Positions 7,084 through 64,000 of a stretch of 64,000 nucleotides of DNA are shown here, one piece after another. Under the pieces are notes generated by a model. That model was not told the DNA's origin. It ran no database searches and saw only the letters and a program-made list of their open reading frames with translations. Every line of letters begins with the position of its first letter. Position 1 is the stretch's first letter. The DNA is taken from contig OZ024740.1 of NCBI GenBank assembly GCA_964016885.1, positions 6,510,001 to 6,574,000 on the forward strand. Reading direction: 5' to 3'. The DNA comes from Eledone cirrhosa (lineage: Eukaryota). A program made the translations under genes and the position numbers.

Positions 7084-7329
7084 ACTGTTCATTTTTCTTT
7101 TTAAATTTATTTTTTAAAATATATATATATATATATATATATGGCAGATCTTTGTAGACACTGTCACAAATATATGTGCAAAACACACCCCACCAAGACC
7201 TGTGAACAAAACTAAGTGCAGTGTCCCCCAAAACAGAAAAACTATTATCAGAAAAATAAAAAGAACAAACAAAAAATTAACACACTAAACAGCAACACAC
7301 ACATTCGATGGCTATCGCCCTGCTTCAAT

Positions 7330-9744: not shown

Positions 9745-9810
<66 letters not shown>
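9745..9810. repeat. (TA)n microsatellite, left flank of the 316-bp array
   Basis: Direct reading. Confidence 0.95.
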
Positions 9811-12420
<2,610 letters not shown>

Positions 12421-14500: not shown

Positions 14501-14561
14501 TAGCTAAAAATCAAAAAAACACTCTAATCCCAAACCACATTAACTATAAATCATACTATCT

Positions 14562-14998
14562 AAAAACCACATTAGCTAAAACTTATACAACCCCAAAACC
14601 ACATTAGCTAAAACTTATACAACCACAAAACCACATTAGCTAAAACTTATACAACTGCAAAACCACAGTAGCTAAAACTTATACAACTGCAAAACCACAG
14701 TAGCTAAAACTTATACAACCCCAAAACCACATTAGCTAAAACTTATACAACCACAAAACCGCATTAGCTAAAACTTATACAACCACAAAACCACATTAGC
14801 TAAAACTTATACAACTGCAAAACCACAGTAGCTAAAACTTATACAACTGCAAAACCACAGTAGCTAAAACTTATACAACCCCAAAACCACATTAGCTAAA
14901 ACTTATACAACTGCAAAACCACATTAGCTAAAACTTATACAACCACAAAACCACATTAGCTAAAACTTATACAACCCCAAAACTACATTAGCTAAAAA
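14562..14998 (+). repeat. 32-bp minisatellite B (AAAACCACATTAGCTAAAACTTATACAACCCC), about 13 copies
   Basis: Period 32 (acttatac at 14581 and 14613), built of two 16-bp subunits. Confidence 0.92.
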
Positions 14999-15170
14999 TT
15001 CAACTTATTCAAAGGTTACATTTGCTAAAAACTCTCACAAGCTGAAAATGGCACTAGCTAAAAATCATAAGAGCCCAAAATCTCATTAGCTAAAAATCAT
15101 ACTCCCCCAAACCACATTAGCTAAACACCACACTAGTTAAAACTCCAGCACAAAATCACGCGAGCTAGAC

Positions 15171-15366
15171 ATCATCATTGTTTCTACTTTAGGCACAAGA
15201 CCAGCAATTACCCCTTGCGTTACTGGTACTTTATTTCATCGACCCCGTAAGGATGAAAGGCAAAGTCAACCTCGGCGGGATTTGAACTCAGATTGTAAAG
15301 GGACGTAACTATGCTGGAAAACATGGCGTCCGACCTTCTACCGATACTGCCAATCCACCACCCTAG
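15171..15366 (-). mobile_element. SINE family A, full-length copy
   Basis: Reverse complement begins ctagggtggtggattggcagtatcggtagaaggtcggacgccatg, then B box gagttcaaatccc, the family core and the tail. Confidence 0.9.
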
Positions 15367-15690: not shown

Positions 15691-15899
15691 AGAGCAGTAG
15701 TTTGGCAGCATTGGTAAGATGTTGGACAACATGTTATGTGGCACAGAGTTACGGCCCTTTAAGGTATGAGTTCAGATCCCACCGAGGTTAACTTTGCCTT
15801 TCATCCTTACAGGGTCAATAAAATAAAGCACCAGAAATGTACTAGGGTTGGTTTAATCAACTTTCCCCTCCTTGTGCCGAGATGAGAAACCATTATTAT
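15691..15899 (+). mobile_element. SINE family A, diverged full-length copy directly upstream of the satellite
   Basis: ttggcagcattggtaagatgttggacaacatg...gagttcagatccc...actttgcctttcatcc...cttgtgcc...gaaaccattattatg. Confidence 0.85.
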
Positions 15900-15901: not shown

Positions 15902-18900
15902 TTAGGGTGCTGGGTTGGTAGTATAGGTCAAGGGTCTGACACCATGTTAGGTGGTGGACTGGCAGTATTGGTAGAGGGTCTGACACCATGTTAGGTGGTG
16001 GATTGGCAGTATTGGTAGAGGGTCTGACAACATGCTAGGGTGGTGGATTGGTAGTATTGGTAGAGGGTCTGACACCATGTTAGTGGGGTGGATTGGCAGT
16101 ATTGGTAGAGGGTGTGACACCATGGTAGGGTGGTGGATTGGCAGTATTGGTAGAGGGTCTGACACCATGTTAGGTGGTGGTTGGTAGTATTGGTAGAGGG
16201 TCTGACACCATGTTAGGGTGGAGGATTGCCAGTATTGGTAGAGGGTCTGACACCATGGTAGGGTGGTGGATTGGCAGTATTGGTAGAGGGTCTGACACCA
16301 TGGTAGGTGGTGGATTGGCAGTATTGGTAGAGGGTCTGACACAATACTAGGGTGGTGGATTGGCAGTATTGGTAGAGGGTCTGACACCATGGTAGGGTGG
16401 TGGATTGGCAGTATTGGTAGAGGGTCTGATGCCATGTTAGGTGGTGGATTGGCAGTATTGGTAGAGGGTCTGACACCATGTTAGGTGGTGGATTGGTAGT
16501 ATTGGTAGAGGGTCTGACACCATGTTAGGGTGGTGGATTGGCAGTATTGGTAGAGGGTCTGACACCATGGTAGGGTGGTGGATTGGCAGTATAGGTAGAA
16601 GGTCTGACACCATGTTAGGTGGTGGATTGGTAGTATTGGTAGAGGGTCTGACACCATGGTAGGGTGGTGGATTGGCAGTATAGGTAGAAGGTCTGACACC
16701 ATGTTAGGTGGTGGATTGGCAGTATTGGTAGAGATTCTGACACAATGCTAGGGTGGTGGATTGGCAGTATTGGTAGAGGGTCTGACACCATGTTAGGTGG
16801 TGGATTGGCAGTATTGGTAGAGGGTCTGACACAATGCTAGGGTGGCGGATTGGCAGTATTGGTAGAGGGTCTGACACCATGTTAGGGTGGTGGATTGGCA
16901 ATATTGGTAGAGGGTCTGACACCATGGTAGGTGGTGGATTGGCAGTATTGGTAGAGGGTCTGACACAATACTAGGGTGGTGGATTGGCAGTATTGGTAGA
17001 GGGTCTGACACCATGGTAGGGTGGTGGATTGGCAGTATTGGTAGAGGGTCTGATGCCATGTTAGGTGGTGGATTGGCAGTATTGGTAGAGGGTCTGATGC
17101 CATGTTAGGTGGTGGATTGGTAGTATTGGTAGAGGGTCTGACACCATGTTAGGGTGGTGGATTGGCAGTATTGGTAGAGGGTCTGACACCATGGTAGGGT
17201 GGTGGATTGGCAGTATAGGTAGAAGGTCTGACACCATGTTAGGTGGTGGATTGGTAGTATTGGTAGAGGGTCTGACACCATGGTAGGGTGGTGGATTGGC
17301 AGTATAGGTAGAAGGTCTGACACCATGTTAGGTGGTGGATTGGCAGTATTGGTAGAGGGTCTGACACAATGCTAGGGTGGTGGATTGGCAGTATTGGTAG
17401 AGGGTCTGACACCATGTTAGGTGGTGGATTGGCAGTATAGGTAGAGGGTCTGACACAATGCTAGGGTGGCGGATTGGCAGTATTGGTAGAGGGTCTGACA
17501 CCATGTTAGGGTGGTGGATTGGCAGTATTGGTAGAGGGTCTGACACCATGTTAGGGTGGTGGATTGGAAGTATTGGTAGAGTGTCTGACACCATGTTAGG
17601 TGGTGGATTGGTAGTATTGGTAGAGGGTCTGACACCATGTTAGGTGGTGGATTGGCAGTATTGGTAGAGATTCTGACACAATGCTAGGGTGGTGGATTGG
17701 CAGTATTGGTAGAGGGTCTGACACCATGTTAGGTGGTGGATAGGCAGTATTGGTAGAGAGTCTGACACAATGCTAGGGTGGCGGATTGGCAGTATTGGTA
17801 GAGGGTCTGACACCATGTTAGGGTGGTGGATTGCAGTATTGGTAGAGGGTCTGACACCATGTTAGGGTGGTGGATTGGTAGTATTGGTAGAGTGTCTGAC
17901 ACCATGTTAGGTGGTGGATTGGTAGTATTGGTAGAGGGTCTGACACCATGTTAGGTGGTGGATTGGCAGTATTGGTAGAGATTCTGACACAATGCTAGGG
18001 TGGTGGATTGGCAGTATTGGTAGAGGGTCTGACACCATGGTAGGTGGTGGATTGGCAGTATTGGTAGAGGGTCTGACACCATGGTAGGTGGTGGATTGGC
18101 AGTATTGGTAGAGGGTCTGACACCATGGTAGGGTGGTGGATTGGCAGTATTGGTAGAGGGTCTGATGCCATGTTAGGTGGTGGATTGGCAGTATTGGTAG
18201 AGGGTCTGATGCCATGTTAGGTGGTGGATTGGTAGTATTGGTAGAGGGTCTGACACCATGTTAGGGTGGTGGATTGGCAGTATTGGTAGAGGGTCTGACA
18301 CCATGGTAGGGTGGTGGATTGGCAGTATTGGTAGAGGGTCTGATGCCATGTTAGGTGGTGGATTGGCAGTATTGGTAGAGGGTCTGATGCCATGTTAGGT
18401 GGTGGATTGGTAGTATTGGTAGAGGGTCTGACACCATGTTAGGTGGTGGATTGGCAGTATTGGTAGAGGGTCTGACACCATGGTAGGGTGGTGGATTGGC
18501 AGTATAGGTAGAAGGTCTGACACCATGTTAGGTGGTGGATTGGTAGTATTGGTAGAGGGTCTGACACCATGGTAGGGTGGTGGATTCGTAGTATAGGTAG
18601 AAGGTCTGACAACATGTTAGGTGGTGGATTGGCAGTATTGGTAGAGATTCTGACACAATGCTAGGGTGGTGCATTGGCAGTATTGGTAGAGGGTCTGACA
18701 CCATGTTAGGGTGGTCGATTGGCAGTATTGGTAGAGGGTCTGACACCATGTTAGGGTGGCGGATTGGCAGTATTGGTAGAGGGTCTGAAACCATGTCAGG
18801 TGGTGGATTGACAGTATTGGTAGAGGGTCTGACACAATGCTAGGGTGGCGGATTGGCAGTATTGGTAGAGAGTCTGACACCATGTTAGGGTGGTGGATTG

Positions 18901-21900
18901 GCAGTATTGGTAGAGGGTCTGACACCATGTTAGGGTGGTGGATTGCTAGTATTGGTAGAGTGTCTGACACCATGTTAGGTGGTGGATTGGTAGTATTGGT
19001 AGAGGGTCTGACACCATGTTAGGTGGTGGATTGGCAGTATTGGTAGAGATTCTGACACAATGCTAGGGTGGTGGATTGGCAGTATTAGTAGAGGGTCTGA
19101 CACCATGTTAGGTGGTGGATTGGCAGTATTGGTAGAGGGTCTGACACAATGCTAGGGTGGCGGATTGGCAGTATTGGTAGAGGGTCTGACACCATGTTAG
19201 GGTGGTGGATTGGCAGTATTGATAGAGGGTCTGACACCATGTTAGGGTGGTGGATTGGTAGTATTGGTAGAGTGTCTGACACCATGTTAGGTGGTGGATT
19301 GGTAGTATTGGTAGAGGGTCTGACACCATGTTAGGTGGTGGATTGGCAGTATTGGTAGAGATTCTGACTCAATGCTAGGGTGGTGGATTGGCAGTATTGG
19401 TAGAGGGTCTGACACCATGTTAGGGTGGTCGATTGGCAGTATTGGTAGAGGGTCTGACACAATGCTAGGGTGGTAGATTGGCAGTATTGGTAGAGGGTCT
19501 GATGCCATGTTAGGGTGGAGGATTGGCAGTATTGGTAGAGGGTCTGACACCATGTTAGGGTGGTCGATTGGCAGTATTGGTAGAGGGTCTGACACAATGC
19601 TAGGGTGGTAGATTGGCAGTATTGGTAGAGGGTCTGACACCATGTTAGGGTGGAGGATTGGCAGTATTGGTAGAGGGTCTGATGCCATGTTAGGGTGGAG
19701 GATTGGTAGTATTGGTAGAGGGTCTGACACCATGTTAGGTGGTGGATTGGCAGTATTGGTAGAGGGTCTGACACCATGGTAGGGTGGTGGATTGGCAGTA
19801 TTGGTAGAAGGTCTGACACCATATTAGGTGGTGGATTGGTAGTGATGGTAGAGGGTCTGACATCATGGTAGGTGGTGGATTGGCAGTATAGGTAGAGGGT
19901 CTGCCACCATGCCAGGTGGTGGATTGGCAGTATTGGTAGAGGGTCTGACACAATGCTAGGGTTGCGGATTGGCAGTATTGGTAGAGGGTCTGACACAATA
20001 CTAGGGTGGTGGATTGGCAGTATTGGTAGAGGGTCTGACACCATGTTAGGGTGGTGGATTGGTAGTATTGGTAGTGTCTGACGCCATGTTAGGTGGTGGA
20101 TTGGTAGTATTGGTAGAGGGTCTGACACCATGTTAGGTGGTGGATTGGCAGTATTGGTAGAGATTCTGACACAATGCTAGGGTGGTGGATTGGTAGTATT
20201 GGTAGAGGGTCTGACAACATGTTAGGGTGGCGGATTGGCAGTATTGTTAGAGGGTCTGACACCATGTTAGGGTGGTGGATTGGTAGTATTGGTAGTGTCT
20301 GACGCCATGTTAGGTGGTGGATTGGTAGTATTGGTAGAGGGTCTGACACCATGTTAGGTGGTGGATTGGCAGTATTGGTAGAGGGTCTGACACCATGTTA
20401 GGGTGGTGGATTGGCAGTATTGGTAGAGGGTCTGACAACATGTTAGGGTGGCGGATTGGCAGTATTGTTAGAGGGTCTGACACCATGTTAGGGTGGTAGA
20501 TTGGCAGTATTGGTAGGGGGTCTGACACCATGTTAGGGTGGTGGATTGGCAGTATAGGTAGAGGGTCTGACACCATGGTAGGGTGGTGGATTGGCAGTAT
20601 AGGTAGAAGGTCTGACACCATGTTAGGTGGTGGATAGGTAGTATTGGTAGAGGGTCTGACACCATGATAGGGTGGTGGATTGGCAGTATAGGTAGAAGGT
20701 CTGACACCATGTTAGGTGGTGGATAGGTAGTATTGGTAGAGGGACTGACACCATGGTAGGGTGGTGGATTGGCAGTATTGGTAGAGGGTCTGACACCATG
20801 TCAGGTGGTGGATTGGCAGTATTGGTAGAGGGTCTGACACAATGCTAGGGTGGCGGATTGGCAGTATTGGTAGAGGGTCAGACGCCATGGGTGGTGGATT
20901 GGCATTATTGGTAGAGGGTCTGACACCATGCTAGGGTGGTGGATTGGCAGTATAGGTAGAGGGTCTGACACCATGTTAGGGTGGTGGATTTGTATTATTG
21001 GTAGAGGGTCTGACACCATGGTAGGTGGTGGATTGGTTGTATTGGTAGAGGGTCTGACACCATGTTAGGTGGTGGATTGGTAGTATTGGTAGAGGGTCTG
21101 ACACCATGGTAGGTGGTGGATTGGTAGTATTGGTAGAGGGTCTGACACCATGTTAGGTGGTGGATTGGTAGTATTGGTAGAGGGTCTGACACCATGTTAG
21201 GGGGGTGGATTGGCAGTATTGGGAGAGGGTCTGACACCATGGTAGGGTGGTGGATTGGCAGTATTGGTAGAGGGTCTGACACCATGTTAGGTGGTGGATT
21301 GGTAGTATTGGTAGAGGGTCTGACACCATGTTAGGGTGAAGGATTGGCAGTATAGGTAGAAGGTCTGACACCATGTTAGGTGGTGGATTGGCAGTATTGG
21401 TAGAGGGTCTAACACAATACTAGGGTGGTGGATTGGCAGTATTGGTAAAGGGTCTGACACCATGTTAGGGTGGTGGATTGGCAGTATAGGTAGAAGGTCT
21501 GACACCATGTTAGGTGGTGGATTGGTAGTATTGGTAGAGGGTCTGACACCATGCTAGGTGGTGGATTGGCAGTATAGGTAGAGGGTCTGACACCATGTCA
21601 GGTGGTGGATTGGCAGTATTGGTAGAGGGTCTGACACAATGCTGGGGTGGCGGATTGGCAATATTGGTAGAGTGTCTGACACAATGCTAGGGTGGCGGAT
21701 TGGCAGTATTGGTAGAGGGTCTGACACCATGTTAGGGTGGTGGATTGGCAGTATTGGTAGAGGGTCTGACACAATGCTGGGGTGGTGGATTGGTAGTATT
21801 GGTAGAGTGTCTGACACCATGTTAGGTGGTGGATTGGTAGTATTGGTAGAGGGTCTGACACCATGTTAGGTGGTGCATTGGCAGTATTGGTAGAGATTCT

Positions 21901-24900
21901 GACACAATGCTAGGGTGGTGGATTGGCAGTATTGGTAGAGGGTCTGACACCATGTTAGGGTGGTGGATTGGCAGTACTGGTAGAGGGTCTGACACCATGT
22001 TACGGTGGCGGATTGGCAGTATTGGTAGAGGGTCTGAGACCATGTTAGGGTGGTGGATTGGTAGTATAGGTAGAGGGTCTGACACCATCCTAGGGTGGTG
22101 GATTTGCAGTATAGGTAGAGGGTCTGACACCATGTTAGGGTGGTGGATTGGCAGTATTGGTAGAGGGTCTGACACCATGCTAGGTGGTGGATTGGTAGTA
22201 TTGGTACAGGGTCTGACACCATGTTAGGTGGTGAATTGGCAGATTAGGTAGAGGGTCTGACACCATGTTAGGGTGGTGGATTTTTAGTATAGGTAGAGGG
22301 TCTGACACCATCGTAGGTGGTGGATTGGTAGTATTGGTAGAGGCTCTGACGCCATGTTAGGTGGTGCATTGATAGTATTGGTAGAGTGTCTGACACCATG
22401 TTACGTGGTGGATTGGCAGTATTAGTAGAGGGTGTGACACAATGCTAGGGTGGTGGATTGGCAGTATTGTTAGAGGGGCTGACACCATGTTAGGTGGAGG
22501 ATTGGCAGTATTGTTAGAGGGTCTGACACAATGCTAGGGTTGTGGATTGGCAGTATTGGTAGAGGGTCTGACACCATGTTAGGTGGTGGATTGGCAGTAT
22601 TGGTAGAGGGTCTGATGCCATGTTAGGTGGTGGATTGGCATTATTGGTAGAGGGTCTGATGCCATGTTAGGTGGTGGATTAGTAGTATTGGTAGAGGGTC
22701 TGACACCATGTTAGGTGGTGGATTGGTAGTATTGGTAGAGGGTCTGACACCATGGTAGGTGGTGGATTGGTAGTATTGGTAGAGGGTCTGACACCATGTT
22801 AGGTGGTGGATTGGTAGTATTGGTAGAGGGTCTGACACCATGTTAGGGGGGTGGATTGGCAGTATTGGTAGAGGGTCTGACACCATGGTAGGGTGGTGGA
22901 TTGGCAGTATTGGTAGAGGGTCTGACACCATGTTAGGTGGTGGATTGGTAGTATTGGTAGAGGGTCTGACACCATGTTAGGGGGGTGGATTGGCAGTATT
23001 GGTAGAGGGTCTGACACCATGGTAGGGTGGTGGATTGGCAGTATTGGTAGAGGGTCTGACACCATGTTAGGGTGGAGGATTGGCAGTATTGGTAGAGGGC
23101 CTGACACCATGTTAGGGTGGTGGATTGGCAGTATTGGTAGAGGGTCTGACACCATGTTAGGGTGGCGGATTGGCAGTATTGGTAGAGGGTCTGACACCAT
23201 GTTAGGCTGGTGGATTGGTAGTATAGGTAGAGGGTCTGACACCATCCTGGGGTGGTGGATTTGCAGTATTGGTAGAGGGTCTGACACCATGTTAGGGTGG
23301 TGGATTGGCAGTATTGGTAGAGGGTCTGACACTATGCTAGGTGCTGGATTGGTAGTATTGGTACAGGGTCTGACACCATGTTAGGTGGTGAATTGGCAGT
23401 ATTGGTAGAGGGTCTGACACCATGGTAGGGTGGTGGATTGGCAGTATTGGTAGAGGGTCTGACACCATGTTAGGGTGGTGGATTGGTAGTATAGGTAGAG
23501 GGTCTGACACCATGGTAGGGTGTTGCATTGGCAGTATTTGTATAGGGTCTGACACCATGTTAGGGTGGTGGATTGGTAGTATAGGTAGAGGGTCTGACAC
23601 CATGGTAGGGTGGTGGATTGGCAGTATTGGTAGAGGGTCTGACACCATGGTAGGGTGGTGGATGGGCAGTATTGGTAGAGGGTCTGACACCATGGTAGGG
23701 TGGTGGATGGGTAGTATTGGTAGAGGGTCTGACACCATGTTAGGGTGGTGGATTGGCAGTATTGGTAGAGGGTCTGACACCATGGTAGGTGGTGGATTGG
23801 CAGTATTGGTAGAGGGTCTGAGACCATGGTAGGGTGGTGGATTGGCAGTATTGGTAGAGGGTCTGACACCATGTTAGAGTGGTGGATTGGTAGTATAGGT
23901 AGAGGGTCTGACACAATGCTAGGGTGGTAGATTGCCAGTATTGTTAGAGGTTCTGACACCATGTTAGGGTGGTGGATTGGTAGTATAGGTAGAGGGTCTG
24001 ACACCATGTTAGGTGGTGGATTGGCAGTATTGGTAGAGGGTCTGACACAATACTAGGGTGGTGGATTGGCAGTATTGGTAAAGGGTCTGACACCATGTTA
24101 GGGTGGTGGATTGGCAGTATAGGTAGAAGGTCTGACACCATGTTAGGTGGTGGATTGGTAGTATTGGTAGAGGGTCTGACACCATGTTAGGGTGGTGGAT
24201 TGGCAGTATTGGTAGAGGGTCTGACACCATGGTAGGGTGGTGGATTGGCAGTATTGGTAGAGGGTCTGACACCATGTTAGGTGGTGTATCGGTAGTATTG
24301 GTAGAGGGTCTGACACCATGTTAGGGTGGTGGATTGGCAGTATTGGTAGAGGGTCTGACACCATGTTAGGGTGCCGGATTGGCAGTATTGGTAGAGGGTC
24401 TGACACCATGTTAGGGTGCCGGATTGGCAGTATTGGTAGAGGGTCTGACACCATGGTAGGGTGGTGGATTGGCAGTATTGGTAGAGGGTCTGACACCATG
24501 TTAGGTGGTGGATTGGTAGTATTGGTAGAGGGTCTGACACCATGTTAGGGTGGTGGATTGGTAGTATAGGTAGAGGATCTGACACCAAGCTAGGGTGGTG
24601 GATTGGCAGTATAGGTAGAGGGTCTGACACCATGTTAGGGGTGGATTGGTAGTATAGGTAGAGGGTTTGACACAATGCTAGGGTGGCGGATTGGCATTAT
24701 TGGTAGAGGGTCTGACACCATGTTAGGTGGTGGATTGGCAGTATTGGTAGAGGGTCTGACACAATGCTAGGGTGGCGGATTGGCAGTATTGGTAGAGAGT
24801 CTGACACCATGTTAGGGTGGCGGATTGGCAGTATTGGTAGAGGGTCTGACACCATGTTAGGTGGTAGATTGGCAGTATTGGTAGAGGGTCTGACACAATG

Positions 24901-27900
24901 CTAGGGTGGTGGATTGGCAGTATTGGTAAAGGGGCTGACACCATGTTAGGTGGTGGATTGGCAGTATTGGTAGAGGGTCTGACACAATGCTAGGGTGGTG
25001 GATTGGCAGTATTGTAGAGGGTCTGACACAATGCTAGGTTGGTGGATTGGCAGTATTGGTAGAGGCTCTGACACCATGTTAGGGTGGTGGATTGGTAGTA
25101 TTGGTAGAGGGTCTGACACCATGTTAGGTGGTGGATTTTTAGTATTGGTAGAGGGTCTGACACCATGTTAGGTGGTGGATTGGCAGTATTGGTAGAGGGT
25201 CTTACACAATGGTAGGGTGGTGGATTGGCAGTATTGGTAGAGTTTCTGACACCATGTTAGTGTGGTGGACTGGTAGTATAGGTAGAGGGTCTGACACCAT
25301 GTTAGGGTGGTGGATTGGCAGTATTGGTAGAGGGTCTGACACCATGTTAGGTGGTGGATTAGCAGTATTGGTAGAGGGTCTGACACCATGTTAGGTGGTG
25401 GATTAGCAGTATTGGTAGAGGGTCAGACGCCATAGGTGGTAGATTGGCAGTATTGGTAGAGGGTCTGACACCATGGTAGGTGGTGGATTGGCAGTATTGG
25501 TAGAGGGTCTGACACAATGCTAGGGTGGTGGATTGGCAGTATTGGTAGAGGGTCTGACAACATGTTAGGTGGTGGATTGGCAGTATTGGTAGAGGGTCAG
25601 ACGCCTTGGGTGGTGGATTGGGAGTATTGGTAGAGGGTCTGACACCATGTTAGGGTGGTGGATTGGCAGTATTGGTAAAGGGTCTGACACCGTGGTAGGG
25701 GTCGATTGGTAGTATAGCTAGAGGGTCTGACACCATGCTAGGGTGGTGGATTGGCAGTATTGGTAGAGGGTCTGACACCATGTTAGGGTGGTGGATTGGC
25801 AGTATTGGTAGTGGTTCTGATACCATGTTAGGGTGGCGGATTGGCAGAATTGGTAGAGGGTCTGACACCATGTTAGGGTGGTGGATTGGCAGTATTTGTA
25901 GATGGTCTGACACTGTGTTAGGGTGGTGGATTGGTAGTATTGGTAGAGTGTCTGACACCATGTTAGGGTGGTGGATTGGCAGTATAGGTAGAGGGTTTAC
26001 ACAATGCTAGGGTGGTGGATTGGCAGTATTAGTAGTGGTTCTGATACCATGTTAGGGTGGTGGATTGGCAGTATTGTTAGAGGGTCTGACACCATGCTAG
26101 GGTGGTGGATTGGCAGTATTGGTAGAGGGTCTGACACCATGTTAGGGTGGTGGATTGGCAGTAGTGGTAGAGGGTCTGACACCATGCTAGGTGGTGGATT
26201 GGTAGTATTGGTAGAGGGTCTGACACCATGTTAGGGTGGTGGAGTGGTAGTATAGGTAGAGGGTCTGACACCATCTTAGGTGGTGGATTGGTAGTATTGG
26301 TAGAGGGGCTGACACCATGTTAGGTGGTGGATTGGCAGTATTGGTAGAGGGTCTGACACCATGTTAGGGTGGTGAATTGGCAGTATTGGTAGAGGGTCTG
26401 ATACCATGTTAGGGTGGTGGATTGGCAGTATCGGTAGAGGGTCTGACACAATGCTAGGGTGGTGGATTGGCAGTATTGGTAGAGGGTCTGACACCATGTT
26501 AGGGTGGCGGATTGGCAATGTTGGTAGAGGGTCTGACACCATGTTAGGTGGTGGATTGGTAATGTTAGTAGAGGGTCTGAAACCATGTTAGGTGGTGGAT
26601 TGGTAGTATTGGTAGAGGGTCAGACGCCTTGGGTGGTGGATTGGGAGTATTGGTAGAGGGTCTGACACAATGTTAGGGTGGTGGATTGGCAGTATTGGTA
26701 AAGGGTCTGACACCGTGGTAGGGGTCGATTGGTAGTATAGCTAGAGGGTCTGACACCATGCTAGGATGGTGGATTGGCAGTATTGGTAGAGGGTCTGACA
26801 CCATGTTAGGTTGGTGGATTGGCAGTATTGGTAGTGGTTCTGATACCATGTTAGGGTGGCGGATTGGCAGAATTGGTAGAAGGTCTGACACCATGTTAGG
26901 GTGGTGGATTGGCAGTATTTGCAGATGGTCTGACACTGTGTTAGGGTGGTGGATTGGTAGTATTGGTAGAGTGTCTGACACCATGTTAGGGTGGTGGATT
27001 GGCAGTATAGGTAGAGGGTTGACACAATGCTAGGGTGGTGGATTGGCAGTATTGGTAGAGGGTCTGACAGCATGTTAGGGTGGTGGATTGGTAGTATTGG
27101 TAGAGGGTCTGACACCATGTTAGGTGGTGGATTGGTAGTATTGGTAGAGGGTCTGACACCATGTTAGGTGGTGGATTGGCAGTATTGGTAGAGGGTTTAC
27201 ACAATGCTAGGGTGGTGGATTGGCAGTATTGGTAGAGGGTCTGACAGCATGTTAGGGTGGTGGATTGGCAGTATTGGTAGAGGGTCTGACACCATGTTAG
27301 GGTGGTGGATTGGTAATATAGGTAGAGGTTCTGACACCATGGTAGGGTGGTGGATTGGCAATATTGGTAGAGGGTCTCACACCATGTTAGGGTGGTGGAT
27401 TGGCAGTATTGGTAGAGGGTCTGACACCATGTTAGGTGGTGGATTGGTAGTATTGGTAGAGGGTCTGACACCATGTTAGGTGGTGGATTGGCAGTATTGG
27501 TAGAGGGTTTACACAATGCTAGGGTGGTGGATTGGCAGTATTGGTAGAGGGTCTGACAGCATGTTAGGGTGGTGGATTGGCAGTATTGGTAGAGGATCTG
27601 ACACCATGTTAGGGTGGTGGATTGGTAATATAGGTAGAGGTTCTGACACCATGGTAGGGTGGTGGATTGGCAGTATCGGTAGAGGGTCTGACACAATGCT
27701 AGGGTGGTGGATTGGCAGTATTGGTAGAGGGTCTGACACCATGTTAGGATGGCGGATTGGCAGTATTGGTAGAGGGTCTGACACCATGTTAGGGTGGTGG
27801 ATTGGTAGTATAGGTAGAGTGTCTGACACCATGCTAGGGTGGTGGATTGGCAGTATAGGTAGAGGGTCTGACACCATGTTAGGGTGGTGGATTGGCAGTA

Positions 27901-51900: not shown

Positions 51901-54900
51901 TGCAGTATTGGTAAAGGGTCTGACACCATGTTAGGATGGTGGATTGGCAGTATTAGTAGAGGGTCTGATACCATGTTAGGGTGGTGGATTGGCAGTATTG
52001 GTAGAGGGTCTGACACCATGTTAGGGTGGCGGATTGGCAGTATTGGTAGAGGGTCTGACACCATGTTACGGTGGTGGATTGGCAGTATTGGTAGAGGGTC
52101 TGATATCATGTTAGGGTGGTTGATTGGTAGTATAGGTAGAGGGTCTGACACCATGGTAGGGTGGCAGATTGGCAGTATTGGTAGAGGGTCTGACACAATG
52201 TTAGGGTGGTGGATTGGAAGTATTGGTAGAGGGTCTGACATCATGTTAGGGTGGTGGATTGGTAGTATAGGTAGAGGTTTTGACACCATTGTAGGGTGGT
52301 GGATTGGCAATATTGGTAGAGCGTCTCACACCATGTTAGGGTGGCGGATTGGCAGTATTGGTAGAGGGTCTGACACCATGTTAGGGTGGAGGATTGGCAA
52401 TATTGGTAGAGGTTCTGACACCATGGTAGGTGGTGGATTGGCAGTATTGGTAGAGGGTCTGACACCATGTTAGGGTGGTGGAGTGGTAGTATAGGTAGAG
52501 GGTCTGACACCATCTTAGGTGGTGGATTGGTAGTATTGGTAGATCGTCTGACACCATGTTAGGGTGGTGGATTGGTAGTATATGTAGAGGGCCTGACACC
52601 ATCTTAGGTGGTGGATTGGTAGTATTGGTAGAGGGTCTGACACCATCTTAGGTGGTGGATTGGCAGTATTGGTAGAGTGTCTGACACAATGCTAGGGTGG
52701 TGGATTGGCAGTATTGTTAGAGGGGCTAACACCATGTTAGGTGGTGGATTGGCAGTATTTGTAGAGGGTCTGACACAATGCTAGGGTTGTGGATTGGCAG
52801 TATTGGTAGAGGGGCTGACACCATTTTAGGTGGTGGATTGGCAGTATTGGTAGAGGGTCAGACGCCATGGGTGGTGGATTGGCATTATTGGTAGAGGGTC
52901 TGACACCATGTTAGGGTGGTGGATTGGCAGTATATGTAGAGGGTCTGACACAATGCTAGGGTGGCGGATTGGCATTATTGGTAGAGGGTCTGACATCATG
53001 TTAGGTGGTGGATTGGCAGTATTGGTAGAGGGTCTGACACAATGCTAGGGTGGTGGATTGGCAGTATTGGTAAAGGGGCTGACAACATGTTAGGTGGTGG
53101 ATTGGCAGTATTGGTAGAGGGTCTGACACAATGCTAGGGTGGTGGATTGGCAGTATTGTAGAGGGTCTGACACAATGCTAGGTTGGTGGATTGGCAGTAT
53201 TGGTAGAGGGTCTGACACCATGTTAGGGTGGTGGATTGGTAGTATTGGTAGAGGGTCTGACACCATGGTAGGGGTGGATTGGTAGTATAAGTAGAGGGTC
53301 TGACACCATGTTAGGTGGTGGATTGGCAGTATTGGTAGAGGGTCTGACACCATGTTAGGTGGTGGATTGGTAGTATTGGTAGAGTGTCTGACACAATGCT
53401 AGGGTGGCGGATTGGCAGTATTGGTAGAGGGTCTGACACCATGTTAGGGTGGCGGATTGGCAGTATTGGTAGAGGGTCTGACACCATGTTAGGGTGGTGG
53501 ATTGGCAGTATTGGTAGAGGGTCTGACACCGTGTTAGGGTGGTGGATTGGTAGTATTGGTAGAGGGTCTGACACCATGTTAGGTGTTGGATTGGTAGTAT
53601 TGGTAGAGGGTCTGACACCATGTTAGGTAGTGGATTGGCAGTATTGGTAGAGGGTCTGACACCATTTTACGGTGGCGGATTGGCAGTATTTGTAGAGGGT
53701 CTGACACCATGTTAGGGTGGTGGATTGGCAGTATTGGCAGCGGGTCTGACACCATGTTAGGGTGGTGGATTGGTAGTATAGGTAGAGGGTCTGACACCAT
53801 GGTAGGGTTGTGGATTGGCAGTATAGGTAGAGGGTCTGACACCATGTTAGGGTGGCGGATTGGCAGTATTGGTAGAGGGTCTGACACCATGCTAGGGTGG
53901 TGGATTGGCAGTATTGGTAGAGGGTCTGACACCATGTTAGGTGGGGGATTGGCAGTATTGGTAGAGGGTCTGACACCATGGTAGAGTGGTAGATTGGCAG
54001 TATTGTTAGAGGGTCTGACACAATGCTAGGGTGGTGGATTGGCAGTATTGGTAGAGGGGCTGACACCATGTTAGGTGGTGGATTGGCAGTATTGGTAGAG
54101 GGTTTGACACAATGCTAGGGTGGTGGATTGGCAGTATAGTTAGAGGGTCTGACACCATGTTAGGGTGGTGGATTGGCAGTATTGGTAGAGGGTCTGACAC
54201 CATGGTAGGGGTGGATTGGTAGTATAGGTAGAGGGTCTGACACAATGCTAGGGTGGCGGATTGGCAGTATTGGTAGAGGGTCTGACACCATGTTAGGGTG
54301 GTGGATTGGCAGTATTGTTAGAGGGTCTGACACCATGTTAGGGTGGCGGATTGGCAGTATTGGTAGAGGGTCTGACACCATGTTAGGGTGGTGGATTGGT
54401 AGTATAGGTAGAGGGTCTGACACCATCTTAGGTGGTGGATTGGTAGTATTGGTAGAGGGTCTGACACCATGTTAGGGTGGCGGATTGGCAGTATTGGTAG
54501 AGGGTCTGACACCAAGCTAGGGTGGTGGATTGGCAGTATTGGTAGAGGGTCTGACACCAAGTTAGGTGGTGGATTGGCAGTATTGGTAGAGGGTCTGACA
54601 CAACGCTAGGGTGGCGGATTAGCAGTATTGGTAGAGGGTCTGACACCATATTAGGTGGTGGATTGGTAGTATTGGTAGAGGGTCTGACACCATGTTAGGT
54701 GGTGGATTGGCAGTATAGGTAGAGGTTCTGACACAATGCTAGGGTGGCGGATAGGCAGTATTGGTAGAGGGTCTGACACCATGTTAGGGTGGTGGATTGG
54801 CAGTATTGGTAGAGGGTCTGACACCATGTTAGGGTGGCGGATTGGCAGTATTGGTAGGGGGTCTGACACCATGTTAGGGTGGTGGATTGGCAGTATTGGT

Positions 54901-57900
54901 AGAGGGTCTGATACCATGTTAGGGTGGTGGATTGGTAGTATAGGTAGAGGGTCTGACACCATTGTAGGGTGGTGGATTGGCAATATTGGTAGAGATCTGA
55001 CACCATGTTAGGTGGTGGATTGGTAGTATTGGTAGAGGGTCTGACACCATGGTAGGTGGTGGATTGGTAGTATTGGTAGAGGGTCTGACACCATGTTCGG
55101 TGGTGGATTGGTAGTATTGGTAGAGGGTCTGACACCTTGTTAGGGTGGAGGATTGGCAGTATTGGTAGAGGGTCTGACACCATGGTAGGGTGGTGGATTG
55201 GCAGTATTGTTAGAGGTTCTGGCACCATGTTAGGTGGTGGATTGGCAGTATTGGTAGAGGGTCAGACGCCATGGGTGGTGGATTGGCAGTATTGGTAGAG
55301 GGTCTAACACCATGTTAGGGTGGTGGATGGTAGTATAGGTAGAGGGTCTGACACCGTGTTAGGTGGTGGATTGGCAGTATTGGTAGAGGGCCTGACACAA
55401 TGCTAGGGTGGTGGATTGGCAGTATTGGTAAAGGGTCTGACACCATGTTAGGTGGTGGATTAGCAGTATTGGTAGATGGTCAGACGCCATGGGTGGTGGA
55501 TTGGCAGCATTGGTAGAGGGTCTGACACCATGTTAGGGTGGTGGATTGGTAGTATTGGTAGAGGGTCTGACACCATGGTAGGGGGTGGATTGGTAGTATA
55601 GGTAGAGGGTCTGACACAATGCTAGGGTGGCGGATTTGCAGTATTGGTAAAGGGTCTGACACCATGTTAGGATGGTGGATTGGCAGTATTAGTAGAGGGT
55701 CTGATACCATGTTAGGGTGGTGGATTGGCAGTATTGGTAGAGGGTCTGACACCATGTTAGGGTGGCGGATTGGCAGTATTGGTAGAGGGTCTGACACCAT
55801 GTTACGGTGGTGGATTGGCAGTATTGGTAGAGGGTCTGATATCATGTTAGGGTGGTTGATTGGTAGTATAGGTAGAGGGTCTGACACCATGGTAGGGTGG
55901 CAGATTGGCAGTATTGGTAGAGGGTCTGACACAATGTTAGGGTGGTGGATTGGCAGTATTGGTAGAGGGTCTGACATCATGTTAGGGTGGTGGATTGGTA
56001 GTATAGGTAGAGGTTTTGACACCATTGTAGGGTGGTGGATTGGCAATATTGGTAGAGCGTCTCACACCATGTTAGGGTGGCGGATTGGCAGTATTGGTAG
56101 AGGGTCTGACACCATGTTAGGGTGGAGGATTGGCAATATTGGTAGAGGTTCTGACACCATGGTAGGTGGTGGATTGGCAGTATTGGTAGAGGGTCTGACA
56201 CCATGTTAGGGTGGTGGAGTGGTAGTATAGGTAGAGGGTCTGACACCATCTTAGGTGGTGGATTGGTAGTATTGGTAGATCGTCTGACACCATGTTAGGG
56301 TGGTGGATTGGTAGTATATGTAGAGGGCCTGACACCATCTTAGGTGGTGGATTGGTAGTATTGGTAGAGGGTCTGACACCATCTTAGGTGGTGGATTGGC
56401 AGTATTGGTAGAGTGTCTGACACAATGCTAGGGTGGTGGATTGGCAGTATTGTTAGAGGGGCTAACACCATGTTAGGTGGTGGATTGGCAGTATTTGTAG
56501 AGGGTCTGACACAATGCTAGGGTTGTGGATTGGCAGTATTGGTAGAGGGGCTGACACCATTTTAGGTGGTGGATTGGCAGTATTGGTAGATGGTCAGACG
56601 CCATGGGTGGTGGATTGGCATTATTGGTAGAGGGTCTGACACCATGTTAGGGTGGTAGATTGGCAGTATAGGTAGAGGGTCTGACACAATGCTAGGGTGG
56701 CGGATTGGCATTATTGGTAGAGGGTCTGACACCATGTTAGGTGGTGGATTGGCAGTATTGGTAGAGGGTCTGACACAATGCTAGGGTGGTGGATTGGCAG
56801 TATTGGTAAAGGGGCTGACAACATGTTAGGTGGTGGATTGGCAGTATTGGTAGAGGGTCTGACACAATGCTAGGGTGGTGGATTGGCAGTATTGTAGAGG
56901 GTCTGACACAATGCTAGGTTGGTGGATTGGCAGTATTGGTAGAGGGTCTGACACCATGTTAGGGTGGTGGATTGGTAGTATTGGTAGTGGGTCTGACACC
57001 ATGGTAGGGGTGGATTGGTAGTATAAGTAGAGGGTCTGACACCATGTTAGGTGGTGGATTGGCAGTATTGGTAGAGGGTCTGACACCATGTTAGGTGGTG
57101 GATTGGTAGTATTGGTAGAGTGTCTGACACAATGCTAGGGTGGCGGATTGGCAGTATTGGTAGAGGGTCTGACACCATGTTAGGGTGGCGGATTGGCAGT
57201 ATTGGTAGAGGGTCTGACACCATGTTAGGGTGGTGGATTGGCAGTATTGGTAGAGGGTCTGACACCGTGTTAGGGTGGTGGATTGGTAGTATTGGTAGAG
57301 GGTCTGACACCATGTTAGGTGTTGGATTGGTAGTATTGGTAGAGGGTCTGACACCATGTTAGGTAGTGGATTGGCAGTATTGGTAGAGGGTCTGACACCA
57401 TTTTACGGTGGCGGATTGGCAGTATTTGTAGAGGGTCTGACACCATGTTAGGGTGGTGGATTGGCAGTATTGGTAGCGGGTCTGACACCATGTTAGGGTG
57501 GTGGATTGGTAGTATAGGTAGAGGGTCTGACACCATGGTAGGGTTGTGGATTGGCAGTATAGGTAGAGGGTCTGACACCATGTTAGGGTGGCGGATTGGC
57601 AGTATTGGTAGAGGGTCTGACACCATGCTAGGGTGGTGGATTGGCAGTATTGGTAGAGGGTCTGACACCATGTTAGGTGGGGGATTGGCAGTATTGGTAG
57701 AGGGTCTGACACCATGGTAGAGTGGTAGATTGGCAGTATTGTTAGAGGGTCTGACACAATGCTAGGGTGGTGGATTGGCAGTATTGGTAGAGGGGCTGAC
57801 ACCATGTTAGGTGGTGGATTGGCAGTATTGGTAGAGGGTTTGACACAATGCTAGGGTGGTGGATTGGCAGTATAGTTAGAGGGTCTGACACCATGTTAGG

Positions 57901-60900
57901 GTGGTGGATTGGCAGTATTGGTAGAGGGTCTGACACCATGGTAGGGGTGGATTGGTAGTATAGGTAGAGGGTCTGACACAATGCTAGGGTGGCGGATTGG
58001 CAGTATTGGTAGAGGGTCTGACACCATGTTAGGGTGGTGGATTGGCAGTATTGTTAGAGGGTCTGACACCATGTTAGGGTGGCGGATTGGCAGTATTGGT
58101 AGAGGGTCTGACACCATGTTAGGGTGGTGGATTGGTAGTATAGGTAGAGGGTCTGACACCATCTTAGGTGGTGGATTGGTAGTATTGGTAGAGGGTCTGA
58201 CACCATGTTAGGGTGGCGGATTGGCAGTATTGGTAGAGGGTCTGACACCAAGCTAGGGTGGTGGATTGGCAGTATTGGTAGAGGGTCTGACACCAAGTTA
58301 GGTGGTGGATTGGCAGTATTGGTAGAGGGTCTGACACAACGCTAGGGTGGCGGATTAGCAGTATTGGTAGAGGGTCTGACACCATATTAGGTGGTGGATT
58401 GGTAGTATTGGTAGAGGGTCTGACACCATGTTAGGTGGTGGATTGGCAGTATTGGTAGCGGGTCTGACACCATGTTAGAGTGGTGGATTAGTAGTATAGG
58501 TAGAGGGTCTGACACCATGGTAGGGTGGTGGATTGGCAGTATAGGTAGAGGGTCTGACACCATGTTAGGGTGGCGGATTGGCAGTATTGGTAGAGGGTCT
58601 GACACCATGCTAGGGTGGTGGATTGGCAGTATTGGTAGAGGGTCTGACACCATGTTAGGGTGGTGGATTGGCAGTATTGGTAGAGGGTCTGCCACCATGC
58701 TAGGGTGGTGGATTGGCAGTATTGGTAGAGGGTCTGACACCATGTTAGGGTGGTGGATTGGCAGTATTGGTAGAGGGTCTGACATCATGCTAGGTGGTGG
58801 ATTGTTAGTATTGGTAGAGGGTCTGACACCATGTTAGGTGGTGGATTGGCAGTATAGGTAGAGGTTCTGACACAATGCTAGGGTGGCGGATTGGCAGTAT
58901 TGGTAGAGGGTCTGACACCATGTTAGGGTCGTGGATTGGCAGTATTGGTAGAGGGTCTGACACCATGTTAGGGTGGCGGATTGGCAGTATTGGTAGAGGG
59001 TCTGACACCATGTTAGGGTGGTGGATTGGCAGTATTGGTAGAGGGTCTGATACCATGTTAGGGTGGTGGATTGGTAGTATAGGTAGAGGGTCTGACACCA
59101 TTGTAGGGTGGTGGATTGGCAATATTGGTAGAGATCTGACACCATGTTTGGGTGGTGGATTGGCAGTATTGGTAGAGGGTCTGACACCATGTTAGGCTGG
59201 AGGATTGGCAGTATTGGTAGAGGGTCTGACACCATGGTAGGGTGGTGGATTGGCAGTATTGTTAGAGGTTCTGGCACCATGTTAGGTGGTGGATTGGCAG
59301 TATTGGTAGAGGGTCTGACACCATGTTAGGGTGGTGGATTGGCAGTATTGTTAGAGGGTCTAACACCATGTTAGGGTGGTGGATGGTAGTATAGGTAGAG
59401 GGTCTGACACCATGTTAGGTGGTGGATTGGCAGTATTGGTAGAGGGCCTGACACAATGCTAGGGTGGTGGATTGGCAGTATTGTTAGAGGGGCTAACACC
59501 ATGTTAGGTGGTGGATTGGCAGTATTGGTAGAGGGTCTGACACCATGTTAGGTGGTGGATTAGCAGTATTGGTAGATGGTCAGACGCCATGGGTGGTGGA
59601 TTGGTAGTATTGGTAGAGGATCTGACACCATGGTAGGGGGTGGATTGGTAGTATAGGTAGAGGGTCTGACACCATGGTAGGGTGGCAGATTGGCAGTATT
59701 GGTAGAGGGTCTGACACAATGTTAGGGTGGTGGATTGGCAGTATTGGTAGAGGGTCTGACATCATGTTAGGGTGGTGGATTGGTAGTATAGGTAGAGGTT
59801 TTGACACCATTGTAGGGTGGTGGATTGGCAATATTGGTAGAGGGTCTAACACCATGTTAGGGTGGCGGATTGGCAGTATTGGTAGAGGGTCTGACACCAT
59901 GTTAGGGTGGAGGATTGGCAATATTGGTAGAGCTTCTGACACCATGGTAGGTGGTGGATTGGCAGTGTTTATAGAGGGTCTGACACCATGGTAGGCTGGT
60001 GGACTGGTAGTATTGGTAGAGGGTCTGACACCATGTTAGGGTGGTGGAGTGGTAGTATAGGTAGAGGGTCTGACACCATCTTAGGTGGTGGATTTGTAGT
60101 ATTGGTAGAGGGTCTGACACCATCTTAGGTGGTGGATTGGCAGTATTGGTAGAGGGTCTGACACAATGCTAGGGTGGTGGATTGGCAGTATTGTTAGAGG
60201 GGCTAACACCATGTTAGGTGGTGGATTGGCAGTATTTGTAGAGGGTCTGACACAATGCTAGGGTTGTGGATTGGCAGTATTGGTAGAGGGGCTGACACCA
60301 TTTTAGGTGGTGGATTGGCAGTATTGGTAGAGGGTCTAACACCATGTTAGGGTGGTGGATGGTAGTATAGGTAGAGGGTCTGACACCATGTTAGGGTGGT
60401 GGATTGGCAGTATTGGTAGAGGGTCTAACACCATGTTAGGGTGGTGGATGGTAGTATAGGTAGAGGGTCTGACACCATGTTAGGTGGTGGATTGGCAGTA
60501 TTGGTAGAGGGCCTGACACAATGCTAGGGTGGTGGATTGGCAGTATTGGTAGAGGGTCTGACACCATGTTAGGTGGTGGATTAGCAGTACTGGTAGATGG
60601 TCAGACGCCATGGGTGGTGGATTGGCAGCATTGGTAGAGGGTCTGACACCATGTTAGGGTGGTGGTTTGGTAGTATTGGTAGAGGGTCTGACACCATGGT
60701 AGGGGGTGGATTGGTAGTATAGGTAGAGGGTCTGACACTATGCTAGGGTGGCGGATTGGCAGTATTGGTAGAGGGTCTGACACCATGTTAGGGTGGTGGA
60801 TTGGCAGTATTGGTAGAGGGTCTGATATCATGTTAGGGTGGTTGATTGGTAGTATAGGTAGAGGGTCTGACACCATGGTAGGGTGGCAGATTGGCAGTAT

Positions 60901-63900
60901 TGGTAGAGGGTCTGACACAATGTTAGGGTGGTGGATTGGCAGTATTGGTAGAGGGTCTGACATCATGTTAGGGTGGTGGATTGGTAGTATAGGTAGAGGT
61001 TTTGACACCATTGTAGGGTGGTGGATTGGCAATATTGGTAGAGGGTCTCACACCATGTTAGGGTGGCGGATTGGCAGTATTGGTAGAGGGTCTGACACCA
61101 TGTTAGGGTGGAGGATTGGCAATATTGGTAGAGGTTCTGACACCATGGTAGGTGGTGGATTGGAAGTGTTTATAGAGGGTCTGACACCATGGTAGGCTGG
61201 TGGATTGGTAGTATTGGTAGAGGGTCTGACACCATGTTAGGGTGGTGGAGTGGTAGTATAGGTAGAGGGTCTGACACCATCTTAGGTGATGGATTGGTAA
61301 TATTGGTAGATCGTCTGACACCATGTTAGAGTGGTGGATTGGTAGTATAGGTAGAGGGTCTGACACCATCTTAGGTGGTGGATTGGTAGTATTGGTAGAG
61401 GGTCTGACACCATCTTAGGTGGTGGATTGGCAGTATTGGTAGAGGGTCTGACACAATGCTAGGGTGGTGGATTGGCAGTATTGTTAGAGGGGCTAACACC
61501 ATGTTAGGTGGTGGATTGGCAGTATTTGTAGAGGGTCTGACACAATGCTAGGGTTGTGGATTGGCAGTATTGGTAGAGGGGCTGACACCATTTTAGGTGG
61601 TGGATTGGCAGTATTGGTAGAGGGTCAGACGCCATGGGTGGTGGATTGGCATTATTGGTAGAGGGTCTGACACCATGTTAGGGTGGTGGATTGGCAGTAT
61701 AGGTAGAGGGTCTGACACCATGTTAGGGTGGTGGATTGGTAGTATAGGTAGAGGGTCTGACACAATGCTAGGGTGGCGGATTGGCAGTATTGGTAGAGGG
61801 TCTGACATCATGTTAGGTGGTGGATTGGCAGTATTGGTAGAGGGTCTGACACAATGCTAGGGTGGTGGATTGGCAGTATTGGTAAAGGGGCTGACAACAT
61901 GTTAGGTGGTGGATTGGCAGTATTGGTAGAGGGTCTGACACAATGCTAGGGTGGTGGATTGGCAGTATTGTAGAGGGTCTGACACAATGCTAGGTTGGTG
62001 GATTGGCAGTATTGGTAGAGGGTCTGACACCATGTTAGGGTGGTGGATTGGTAGTATTGTTAGAGGGTCTGACACCATGGTAGGGGTGGATTGGTAGTAT
62101 AAGTAGAGGGTCTGACACCATGTTAGGTGGTGGATTGGCAGTATTGGTAGAGGGTCTGACACCATGTTAGGTGGTGGATTGGTAGTATTGGTAGAGTGTC
62201 TGACACAATGCTAGGGTGGCGGATTGGCAGTATTGGTAGAGGGTCTGACACCATGTTAGGGTGGCGGATTGGCAGTATTGGTAGAGGGTCTGACACCATG
62301 TTAGGGTGGTGGATTGGCAGTATTGGTAGAGGGTCTGACACCGTGTTAGGGTGGTGGATTGGTAGTATTGGTAGAGGGTCTGACACCATGTTAGGTGTTG
62401 GATTGGTAGTATTGGTAGAGGGTCTGACACCATGTTAGGTAGTGGATTGGCAGTATTGGTAGAGGGTCTGACACCATTTTACGGTGGCGGATTGGCAGTA
62501 TTTGTAGAGGGTCTGACACCATGTTAGGGTGGTGGATTGGCAGTATTGGCAGCGGGTCTGACACCATGTTAGGGTGGTGGATTGGTAGTATAGGTAGAGG
62601 GTCTGACACCATGGTAGGGTTGTGGATTGGCAGTATAGGTAGAGGGTCTGACACCATGTTAGGGTGGCGGATTGGCAGTATTGGTAGAGGGTCTGACACC
62701 ATGCTAGGGTGGTGGATTGGCAGTATTGGTAGAGGGTCTGACACCATGTTAGGTGGGGGATTGGCAGTATTGGTAGAGGGTCTGACACCATGGTAGAGTG
62801 GTAGATTGGCAGTATTGTTAGAGGGTCTGACACAATGCTAGGGTGGTGGATTGGCAGTATTGGTAGAGGGGCTGACACCATGTTAGGTGGTGGATTGGCA
62901 GTATTGGTAGAGGGTTTGACACAATGCTAGGGTGGTGGATTGGCAGTATAGTTAGAGGGTCTGACACCATGTTAGGGTGGTGGATTGGCAGTATTGGTAG
63001 AGGGTCTGACACCATGGTAGGGGTGGATTGGTAGTATAGGTAGAGGGTCTGACACAATGCTAGGGTGGCGGATTGGCAGTATTGGTAGAGGGTCTGACAC
63101 CATGTTAGGGTGGTGGATTGGCAGTATTGTTAGAGGGTCTGACACCATGTTAGGGTGGCGGATTGGCAGTATTGGTAGAGGGTCTGACACCATGTTAGGG
63201 TGGTGGATTGGTAGTATAGGTAGAGGGTCTGACACCATCTTAGGTGGTGGATTGGTAGTATTGGTAGAGGGTCTGACACCATGTTAGGGTGGCGGATTGG
63301 CAGTATTGGTAGAGGGTCTGACACCAAGCTAGGGTGGTGGATTGGCAGTATTGGTAGAGGGTCTGACACCAAGTTAGGTGGTGGATTGGCAGTATTGGTA
63401 GAGGGTCTGACACAACGCTAGGGTGGCGGATTAGCAGTATTGGTAGAGGGTCTGACACCATATTAGGTGGTGGATTGGTAGTATTGGTAGAGGGTCTGAC
63501 ACCATGTTAGGTGGTGGATTGGCAGTATAGGTAGAGGTTCTGACACAATGCTAGGGTGGCGGATAGGCAGTATTGGTAGAGGGTCTGACACCATGTTAGG
63601 GTGGTGGATTGGCAGTATTGGTAGAGGGTCTGACACCATGTTAGGGTGGCGGATTGGCAGTATTGGTAGGGGGTCTGACACCATGTTAGGGTGGTGGATT
63701 GGCAGTATTGGTAGAGGGTCTGATACCATGTTAGGGTGGTGGATTGGTAGTATAGGTAGAGGGTCTGACACCATTGTAGGGTGGTGGATTGGCAATATTG
63801 GTAGAGATCTGACACCATGTTAGGTGGTGGATTGGTAGTATTGGTAGAGGGTCTGACACCATGGTAGGTGGTGGATTGGTAGTATTGGTAGAGGGTCTGA

Positions 63901-64000
63901 CACCATGTTCGGTGGTGGATTGGTAGTATTGGTAGAGGGTCTGACACCTTGTTAGGGTGGAGGATTGGCAGTATTGGTAGAGGGTCTGACACCATGGTAG
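15902..64000 (+). repeat. 44/45-bp G-rich tandem satellite (TTAG(G)GTGGTGGATTGGCAGTATTGGTAGAGGGTCTGACACCATG), ~48 kb, ~1,080 monomers, continuing past the window edge
   Basis: Uninterrupted head-to-tail monomers in a single orientation, with recurrent variants (ACAATGCTAG, GGTAGT, TATAGG, and a 42-bp CAGACGCCATGGG form). Copy number estimated as length divided by ~44.5. Confidence 0.98.

Follow-up and report, generated by a model that had tools for sequence, protein, structure and literature searches.

The 45-bp satellite of Eledone cirrhosa is the repeated head of a SINE and may have spread between SINE copies by gene conversion

It has long been asked how satellites arrive at new positions on chromosomes, and such arrivals are usually credited to transposons or DNA circles without direct traces. 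Mouse LINE-1 (long interspersed element 1) carries tandem promoter monomers at its 5' end, variable in number and with a truncated first unit, and mammalian minisatellites undergo conversion-like turnover in regions of high recombination. The closest described systems are the satellites sSat1-3 of squamate reptiles, which derive from short interspersed elements (SINEs) (Vassetzky, Kosushkin and Ryskov, 2023; PMC10702118), and the GC-rich subtelomeric minisatellites of mammals with a SINE origin, among them Alu-associated ones and the B1-derived family of variable number tandem repeats in mouse (PMC9659126). SINEs account for 11.6% of an octopus genome (PMC13282606), and a CORE-type tRNA SINE of octopus, OR2 (Ohshima and Okada, 1994), is named in PMC4758252; the passages of these two papers on octopus and mollusc repeats mention no satellite from such SINEs. 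We were interested in a window of 64,000 nt from Eledone cirrhosa (assembly GCA_964016885.1, contig OZ024740.1, positions 6,510,001 to 6,574,000 of the forward strand; G000:C1:6,510,001-6,574,000 in the 3.0-Gb genome searched here), most of which is a tandem array of 45-bp units. This satellite is the 5' head of a SINE family, repeated in front of SINE bodies at many loci, and its heads probably passed from one host SINE to another by ectopic gene conversion. SINE-derived satellites are already known as a class; host-to-host spread of heads was not found in the literature searched, which left most subscription papers and supplements outside and yielded neither a cephalopod SINE-head satellite nor conversion-driven transfer between SINE copies.

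The array opens at window position 15902, and Tandem Repeats Finder assigned 15901-64000 a period of 45 with 1080 copies and 89% matches. A preliminary description of this DNA had taken the monomer for the A-box head at the 5' end of a SINE family, and this was confirmed: the array consensus and the SINE head consensus are identical at 39 of 43 positions, with each of the four differences at a CpG site, and the head is present in all 29 other best genome-wide SINE matches, at 35-40 of 43 positions. The head of a neighbouring copy (15366-15322, minus strand) matched the commonest monomer at 40 of 45 positions, as had been stated, compared to a best of 27 and a mean of 23.9 for 100 shuffles of the 15.9-kb flank. 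Nor is the head a peculiarity of the local copies, as the exact pattern of head plus body start occurs 27,936 times genome-wide with matches on many contigs; counting only the exact pattern, this gives a lower bound of at least 27,900 SINE copies. The SINE is about 190 bp long, begins at AGGG and shows an A-box-like motif at about +13, a B-box-like motif at about +80 (both judged by consensus motifs), a run of 3-4 T directly after the 45-nt head unit and an ATT-type tail. Target-site duplications and a simple-repeat tail were visible in 30 loci. Layout and core may resemble those of the octopus CORE-type SINEs, and neither Rfam (E <= 10) nor ARAGORN gave a match indicating a tRNA origin of the head. 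The SINE often lands in the ATT tail of another copy (12/64 single-headed copies), giving tandem SINE runs (e.g. L008, L014, L016, L024 and L028).

The array proved to be larger than the 48 kb given at first. It extends on the plus strand over 15902-64000 and about 83.6 kb beyond the window, ending at G000:C1:6,657,582, with a total length of about 131.7 kb and roughly 2,900 units; this length is based on the window, the next 10 kb, the final 4.6 kb and 2-3-kb probes between them, a discontinuous coverage in which everything was array. Unit spacings in the window (n = 1074) were mainly 45 bp (678) and 44 bp (332), followed by 43 bp (32) and 41 bp (22), the 44-bp variant reflecting a single G deletion in about one third of the units. 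Mean unit identity to the array consensus was 94% (1386 units), and 380 distinct unit types were found in the window part. Exact 120-mers recur in the array at fixed offsets of 8683, 5667, 2944 and 3736 bp, and exact block duplications span offsets of 1.5-8.8 kb. Scaled from the window, an estimated 1,030 or so of the genome's 2,673 exact copies of the main unit plus junction sit in this array. In 58 kb of array 280 CpG were observed versus 2487 expected, and its units are the most derived, CpG-free ones, with 0.03 CpG per unit. The same 58 kb contained no match to the B-box consensus on either strand, in agreement with the preliminary description, and without a B box the array would not serve as a template for RNA polymerase III (Pol III). 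G-quadruplexes are weak candidates for a driver of the array (mean G4Hunter 0.65; 0.6% of windows >=1.2), and the RNA fold of the SINE head is nothing special (z -0.23). The array is most likely selfish or neutral DNA, and the dispersed, distal loci, ranging from 90 bp to 132 kb, argue against a centromeric role. TTAGGG hexamers, made by the unit junction, occur at about 8.4 per kb on one strand of 15902-64000 compared to 0.6 per kb in the flank. TTAGGG is the usual telomere repeat in animals; binding of telomere proteins to these hexamers would be speculation.

Searches for other loci revealed a family of many-headed SINEs with a uniform anatomy: after the target site comes a first head, in many cases truncated, then n complete heads with the joint CATG[C/T/G]T-AGGG, followed by a body of the usual kind, a tail and the target site again; the heads number from 2 to thousands (about 2,900 at most, in the window array). 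A SINE body ends 13 of the 14 arrays found by body-blind searches, one of these bodies lying beyond a 2.3-kb insertion and one being fused by a deletion; the exception is the window array. A body also ends 5/6 further arrays from an allele search. The combined pattern of junction, last head and body start gave 197 matches at <=1 mismatch, a number that slightly overcounts loci of that type (a few lie within one long array at C2:21.86 Mb) and misses all diverged loci. The first 30 of 49 exact matches to the junction pattern were all many-headed (nine with exactly two heads, 12 with 2-3, and a maximum of 34 or more), as were all 16 one-mismatch regions examined. The genome therefore holds about 200 or more many-headed SINE copies, of which the window array is the largest seen; other long arrays measure 56 kb, at least 84 kb and about 100 kb, and 41 arrays in our sample have >=9 scored units. 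Target sites mark the element as a whole: 33 of 63 arrays with both ends in view share at least 9 nt on the two sides of the entire element, versus 1-9 in ten mismatched pairings, and a 34-kb array at C1:3.02 Mb is enclosed by a 14-nt duplication. The SINE itself was found in all four sequencing runs, and the head-head junction is bridged in contigs from the runs of two other organisms (B, record 15; C, record 23). In organism B, 97% of the depth at the junction base is a variant rare in the E. cirrhosa genome, which organism D shows more weakly. Two arrays on C1 may be added here. At C1:10.317-10.417 Mb (L175, L273) the array of about 100 kb is split by an insertion whose end sequence recurs twice in the array, which may be longer still, and 22 kb upstream of the window array, at G000:C1:6,497,044-6,503,689 (L047/L046), lies a second array of 148 units with a TTGG unit, partly kept CpG and a decayed body, sharing variants with the array at C1:5.02 Mb and not with the window array.

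Several observations indicate that the added heads came from elsewhere. The head-to-head junction is absent from any single-headed SINE and must therefore be imported. In 21/63 arrays the first head lacks the first 7 nt of the SINE, which the added units carry wherever units were inspected, so that local duplication alone fails. The strongest single clue for host-to-host transfer is a rare G-to-A allele, which in the whole genome was counted in no more than 41 heads attached to a body. Among the matches listed, seven arrays in the interval C1:429.7-435.2 Mb carry it in their added units (6/6, 26/26, 12/12, 20/20, 1/7, 11/14 and 28/51). These arrays differ in flanks and bodies, five of the seven have a first head that is ancestral at the allele base, and of 41 arrays sampled in other places the allele dominated not a single one. 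In the array at C1:4.07 Mb a private change of the host appears in both the first unit and the last block, around an interior of the foreign, long-array type. The body-attached head lacks TCTG in 12/16 arrays dominated by this allele, several of which were found with queries favouring such an outcome. The bodies of 64 many-headed copies fall into three subfamilies (34/12/18) that are intermixed with single-headed copies in a tree which is rough, some bodies being cut short; a single many-headed retroposing master therefore fits poorly.

The chromosomal location is equally uneven. On C1-C4, 36 of 39 many-headed loci lie within the outer 15% at either end, compared to 5/20 and 1/17 in SINE controls (Fisher p 2e-7 and 4e-10 respectively). 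The 1/17 control omits three many-headed matches, and 9 of 9 control copies checked were single-headed; the 36/39 count assumes a complete listing of junctions on C1-C4 (listings can skip places) and contigs that equal whole chromosomes. The distal zones are broad, up to about 55 Mb, and not strict subtelomeres. Single-headed copies are the scarcer ones in distal C1, SINE density being 3.1/Mb in its first 32 Mb versus 9.3/Mb genome-wide. Two-headed copies are distal as well (5/5 seen on C1-C4), and ordinary copies are mostly central. The only truly central many-headed locus, C4:182.65 Mb (L222), is a 99% paralog of the distal C2:392.29 Mb (L217). The two differ in the number of heads (21 in the distal and 4 in the central copy), and the four heads of the central copy sit on a body that at the distal locus is part of another SINE with a single head; this points to recombination moving heads between bodies. 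As an inter-chromosomal duplicate, the pair offers a natural before-and-after comparison.

From the foreign added units, the regional allele and the distal location, we consider ectopic gene conversion, which would copy a pre-formed head-head junction into resident SINE heads and be followed by expansion in place, the probable mechanism, with a probability of roughly 0.6. The junction would have arisen once, earlier than the divergence of this species from at least two relatives. When a resident head, or DNA close to it, is broken, a tandem array, frequently one in the neighbourhood, would serve as the template for repair; synthesis may then cross the junction and re-anneal out of register, so that one or more units are added and the host retains its target site, 5' edge and body. 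Frequent recombination would be required, hence chromosome ends and small chromosomes. Arrays would later grow, likely by unequal exchange, lose CpGs and exchange interior units, and the window array may be an extreme product with kilobase-scale block duplications, its body having been lost at a rearrangement or insertion. A more far-reaching picture, to which we give about even odds, is that of a satellite as a parasite of SINEs: a once-formed 45-bp junction would home by gene conversion into any of tens of thousands of resident SINE heads, advance from arrays nearby through the recombination-rich ends of chromosomes and found arrays of between two units and 130 kb.

Some findings weigh against host-to-host conversion. 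The conversion step is deduced from patterns in the assembled sequence, and the host structure of the window array rests on analogy, its own body being absent. Target-site duplications and truncated first heads are equally expected if many-headed copies retrotransposed. In a targeted search the G-to-A allele also dominated an array on the other arm, at C1:26.09 Mb (31/34), and other clusters may exist, as the allele search covered 100 of 214 matches. The TCTG allele of long arrays is also found in a single-headed SINE subfamily of 2123 copies (26 of 30 checked were single-headed), so that part of the TCTG sharing could come from the hosts. A genome-wide test of 41 arrays for greater similarity between near ones, with a window of 3 Mb, fell short of significance (permutation p = 0.059). 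Finally, the correlation of array length with CpG (rho -0.64) is confounded, since short arrays came from CpG-intact and long ones from CpG-free queries.

The main alternative is that many-headed SINEs are mobilised as RNA, in which case an insertion arrives with two or more heads and expands later. Pol III may start at an upstream A box, or the reverse transcriptase may jump onto head-only RNAs ending at the T run past position 45, and the position of the unit end just ahead of the 3-4 T would suit such a short terminated transcript. Target-site duplications around whole arrays, the frequent 5' truncation of first heads and the 9/30 loci with exactly two heads agree with this route. No bias to local hopping is expected of LINE-driven retroposition, and the distal position of many-headed copies argues against any RNA route; if heads had arrived with the insertion, the distal restriction of even the two-headed copies next to mostly central ordinary ones, the intermixing of three body subfamilies and a regional allele shared by unrelated hosts whose first head is ancestral would all be difficult to explain. 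We therefore regard mobilisation as RNA as unlikely.

A different doubt, judged separately, concerns the size of the window array and its missing body rather than the family-wide model. The array stops within a head and abuts a (CAC/CAA)n tract of about 4.8 kb, which is followed by a Helitron fragment. The rest of the SINE was not found there: neither a host SINE body, nor a resumed array, nor a second target-site copy was detected in the 55 kb past the far end. The nearest plus-strand match to a SINE body lies 25 kb past it, and plus-strand copies further on have their own heads. A search for a shorter version of the locus through a paralog of the array's 5' flank found none. The sudden transition into low-complexity sequence, where 13 other arrays keep a body, and the fixed offsets of the exact 120-mers might suggest that the array length or the far end is an assembly artefact, the repeat family itself being real. 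As the stretches examined are free of N gaps, the units are diverse (the 380 types mentioned above) and arrays of similar size exist elsewhere (at least 84 kb and about 100 kb), this is doubtful. The Helitron fragment, within G000:C1:6,657,590-6,667,500, is a Rep fragment (Pfam Helitron_like_N, E 9.5e-28) split by a TG-rich minisatellite of about 2.5 kb.

Less probable than mobilisation as RNA are extrachromosomal circles that are excised from arrays, amplified as rolling circles and reinserted by homology into SINE heads, an outcome as in gene conversion with a circle as donor. One such step would add full-length foreign units and keep host target site and body, and the single-type unit blocks between host-like ends at C3:368.86 and C1:4.07 Mb, as well as the kilobase periodicities of the window array, may be explained in this way. 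The gain of only one or two units at many loci (2-3 heads in 12/30) speaks against circles, and chromosomal donors account for regional allele sharing and distal restriction more simply. An independent duplication of the head in each SINE copy, with the same breakpoints, is already largely refuted and very improbable: private changes common to the units of short arrays (e.g. L232, L236, L237 and L240) reflect local copying after the first step, but 21/63 hosts lack bases carried by their added units, the junction shows no visible microhomology, and unrelated neighbouring hosts share an allele.

For the window itself, the preliminary description had proposed a birth on the spot, where the parent elements and the junction formed at birth would still be present. 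The observation that the array starts directly behind the tail of a plus-strand SINE holds, yet the SINE copies next to it were rejected as parents. The copy at 15175-15364 (minus strand) is a young single-headed SINE with A-box-like head (40/45 to the monomer), B-box-like motif, core, tail and its own target-site duplication; its start, placed earlier at 15366, has to be moved to the AGGG, as 15366-15365 belong to that duplication. The plus-strand copy at 15691-15899 is old and diverged (79% to the young copy over 136 nt; best relatives elsewhere 77-89% alike), and the host SINE of the array landed in its ATT-rich tail. The former is thus inverted and the latter too diverged, and landing behind a SINE tail is common, as noted above (12/64). 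The claim that the copies at 6517 and 15691 share the same head is true only loosely, the first being 5'-truncated (30/45 ungapped) and the second matching at 30/45 with a 2-nt shift. The true host is the SINE to which the opening head of the array belongs, and the degenerate opening unit (15902-15946, plus strand) is probably the remnant of this head, by analogy with the 63 arrays having both ends in view. A single birth of the satellite here, out of its neighbours, as the identity of monomer and family head and the abutting SINE tail might suggest, is most improbable and, as regards the neighbours, refuted: about 200 or more loci, as well as contigs from at least two other organisms, have the same junction, the neighbours are inverted or old, and the units of the window array are the most derived ones, with practically no CpG (0.03 per unit).

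Two further SINE copies lie upstream in the window, a 5'-truncated single-headed one at 6340-6517 (minus strand), 88% identical to the 15366 copy over SINE positions 10-190, and one at 1516-1659 (plus strand) with most of its head gone and 90% identity over positions 32-175. Just upstream of the SINE pair, 14013-15142 consist of nested 16/32-bp minisatellites with a strong A/C skew. A 316-bp unit is repeated 6.5 times at 99% identity in 9801-11869, between TA microsatellites; this block either was amplified on the spot very recently or results from the assembly. Reading by eye gave decayed, LINE-like fragments of reverse transcriptase at 1-480, 1700-2690 and 7250-9200, which are candidate partner LINEs of the SINE.

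Each array of this family sits inside a dated retroposon insertion marked by its target site, the alleles of donor and host can be told apart, and from 2 to about 2,900 heads are found in one genome. If heads indeed move by conversion, the dispersal of a satellite could be read locus by locus from the host target site, the body subfamily and the first head, a rare case in which the way of a satellite to new sites can be traced. In addition, the density of many-headed SINEs might serve as a marker of recombination-rich regions in a lineage that possibly lacks linkage maps.

As in mouse LINE-1, the number of units at the 5' end of the retroposon varies and the first unit is truncated; there, Pol II promoter units spread via RNA, whereas many-headed SINEs are restricted to distal regions and belong to several subfamilies. 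With the mammalian minisatellites (PMC9659126), as far as the available passages describe them, the array family shares a strand-asymmetric unit below 100 bp, a location toward chromosome ends and an origin of many loci from one retroposon family. Those minisatellites expand motifs already within each element, in contrast to the junction found here. The likeness to the squamate satellites, again as described in the accessible part of PMC10702118, goes further. In both cases tandem units stem from part of a SINE, of tRNA type there, and are shared across loci; the unit is shorter than the SINE (here with 39/43 identity to the head consensus); many loci have at least four middle monomers, with few to over 1000 units there and 41 arrays of >=9 scored units here; the terminal unit runs into a SINE, here in 13/14 body-blind arrays with the window array excepted; and a subtelomeric preference is seen, here as 36/39 loci in the outer 15% of C1-C4. 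The units differ, as those of sSat have a length of about 70-290 nt and most of them take in the B box, the body or the 3' part, with minor variants from the 5' or tRNA part, and the units of E. cirrhosa are the first 45 nt with the A box. Moreover, in a different phylum and with up to about 2,900 units, whole hosts flanked by their target sites have been kept here. For sSat, duplication, amplification and concerted evolution are invoked (PMC10702118); the accessible part of that paper shows no regional alleles, truncated hosts or transfer of units between unrelated insertions, the transfer that such alleles and hosts suggest for the array family described here.

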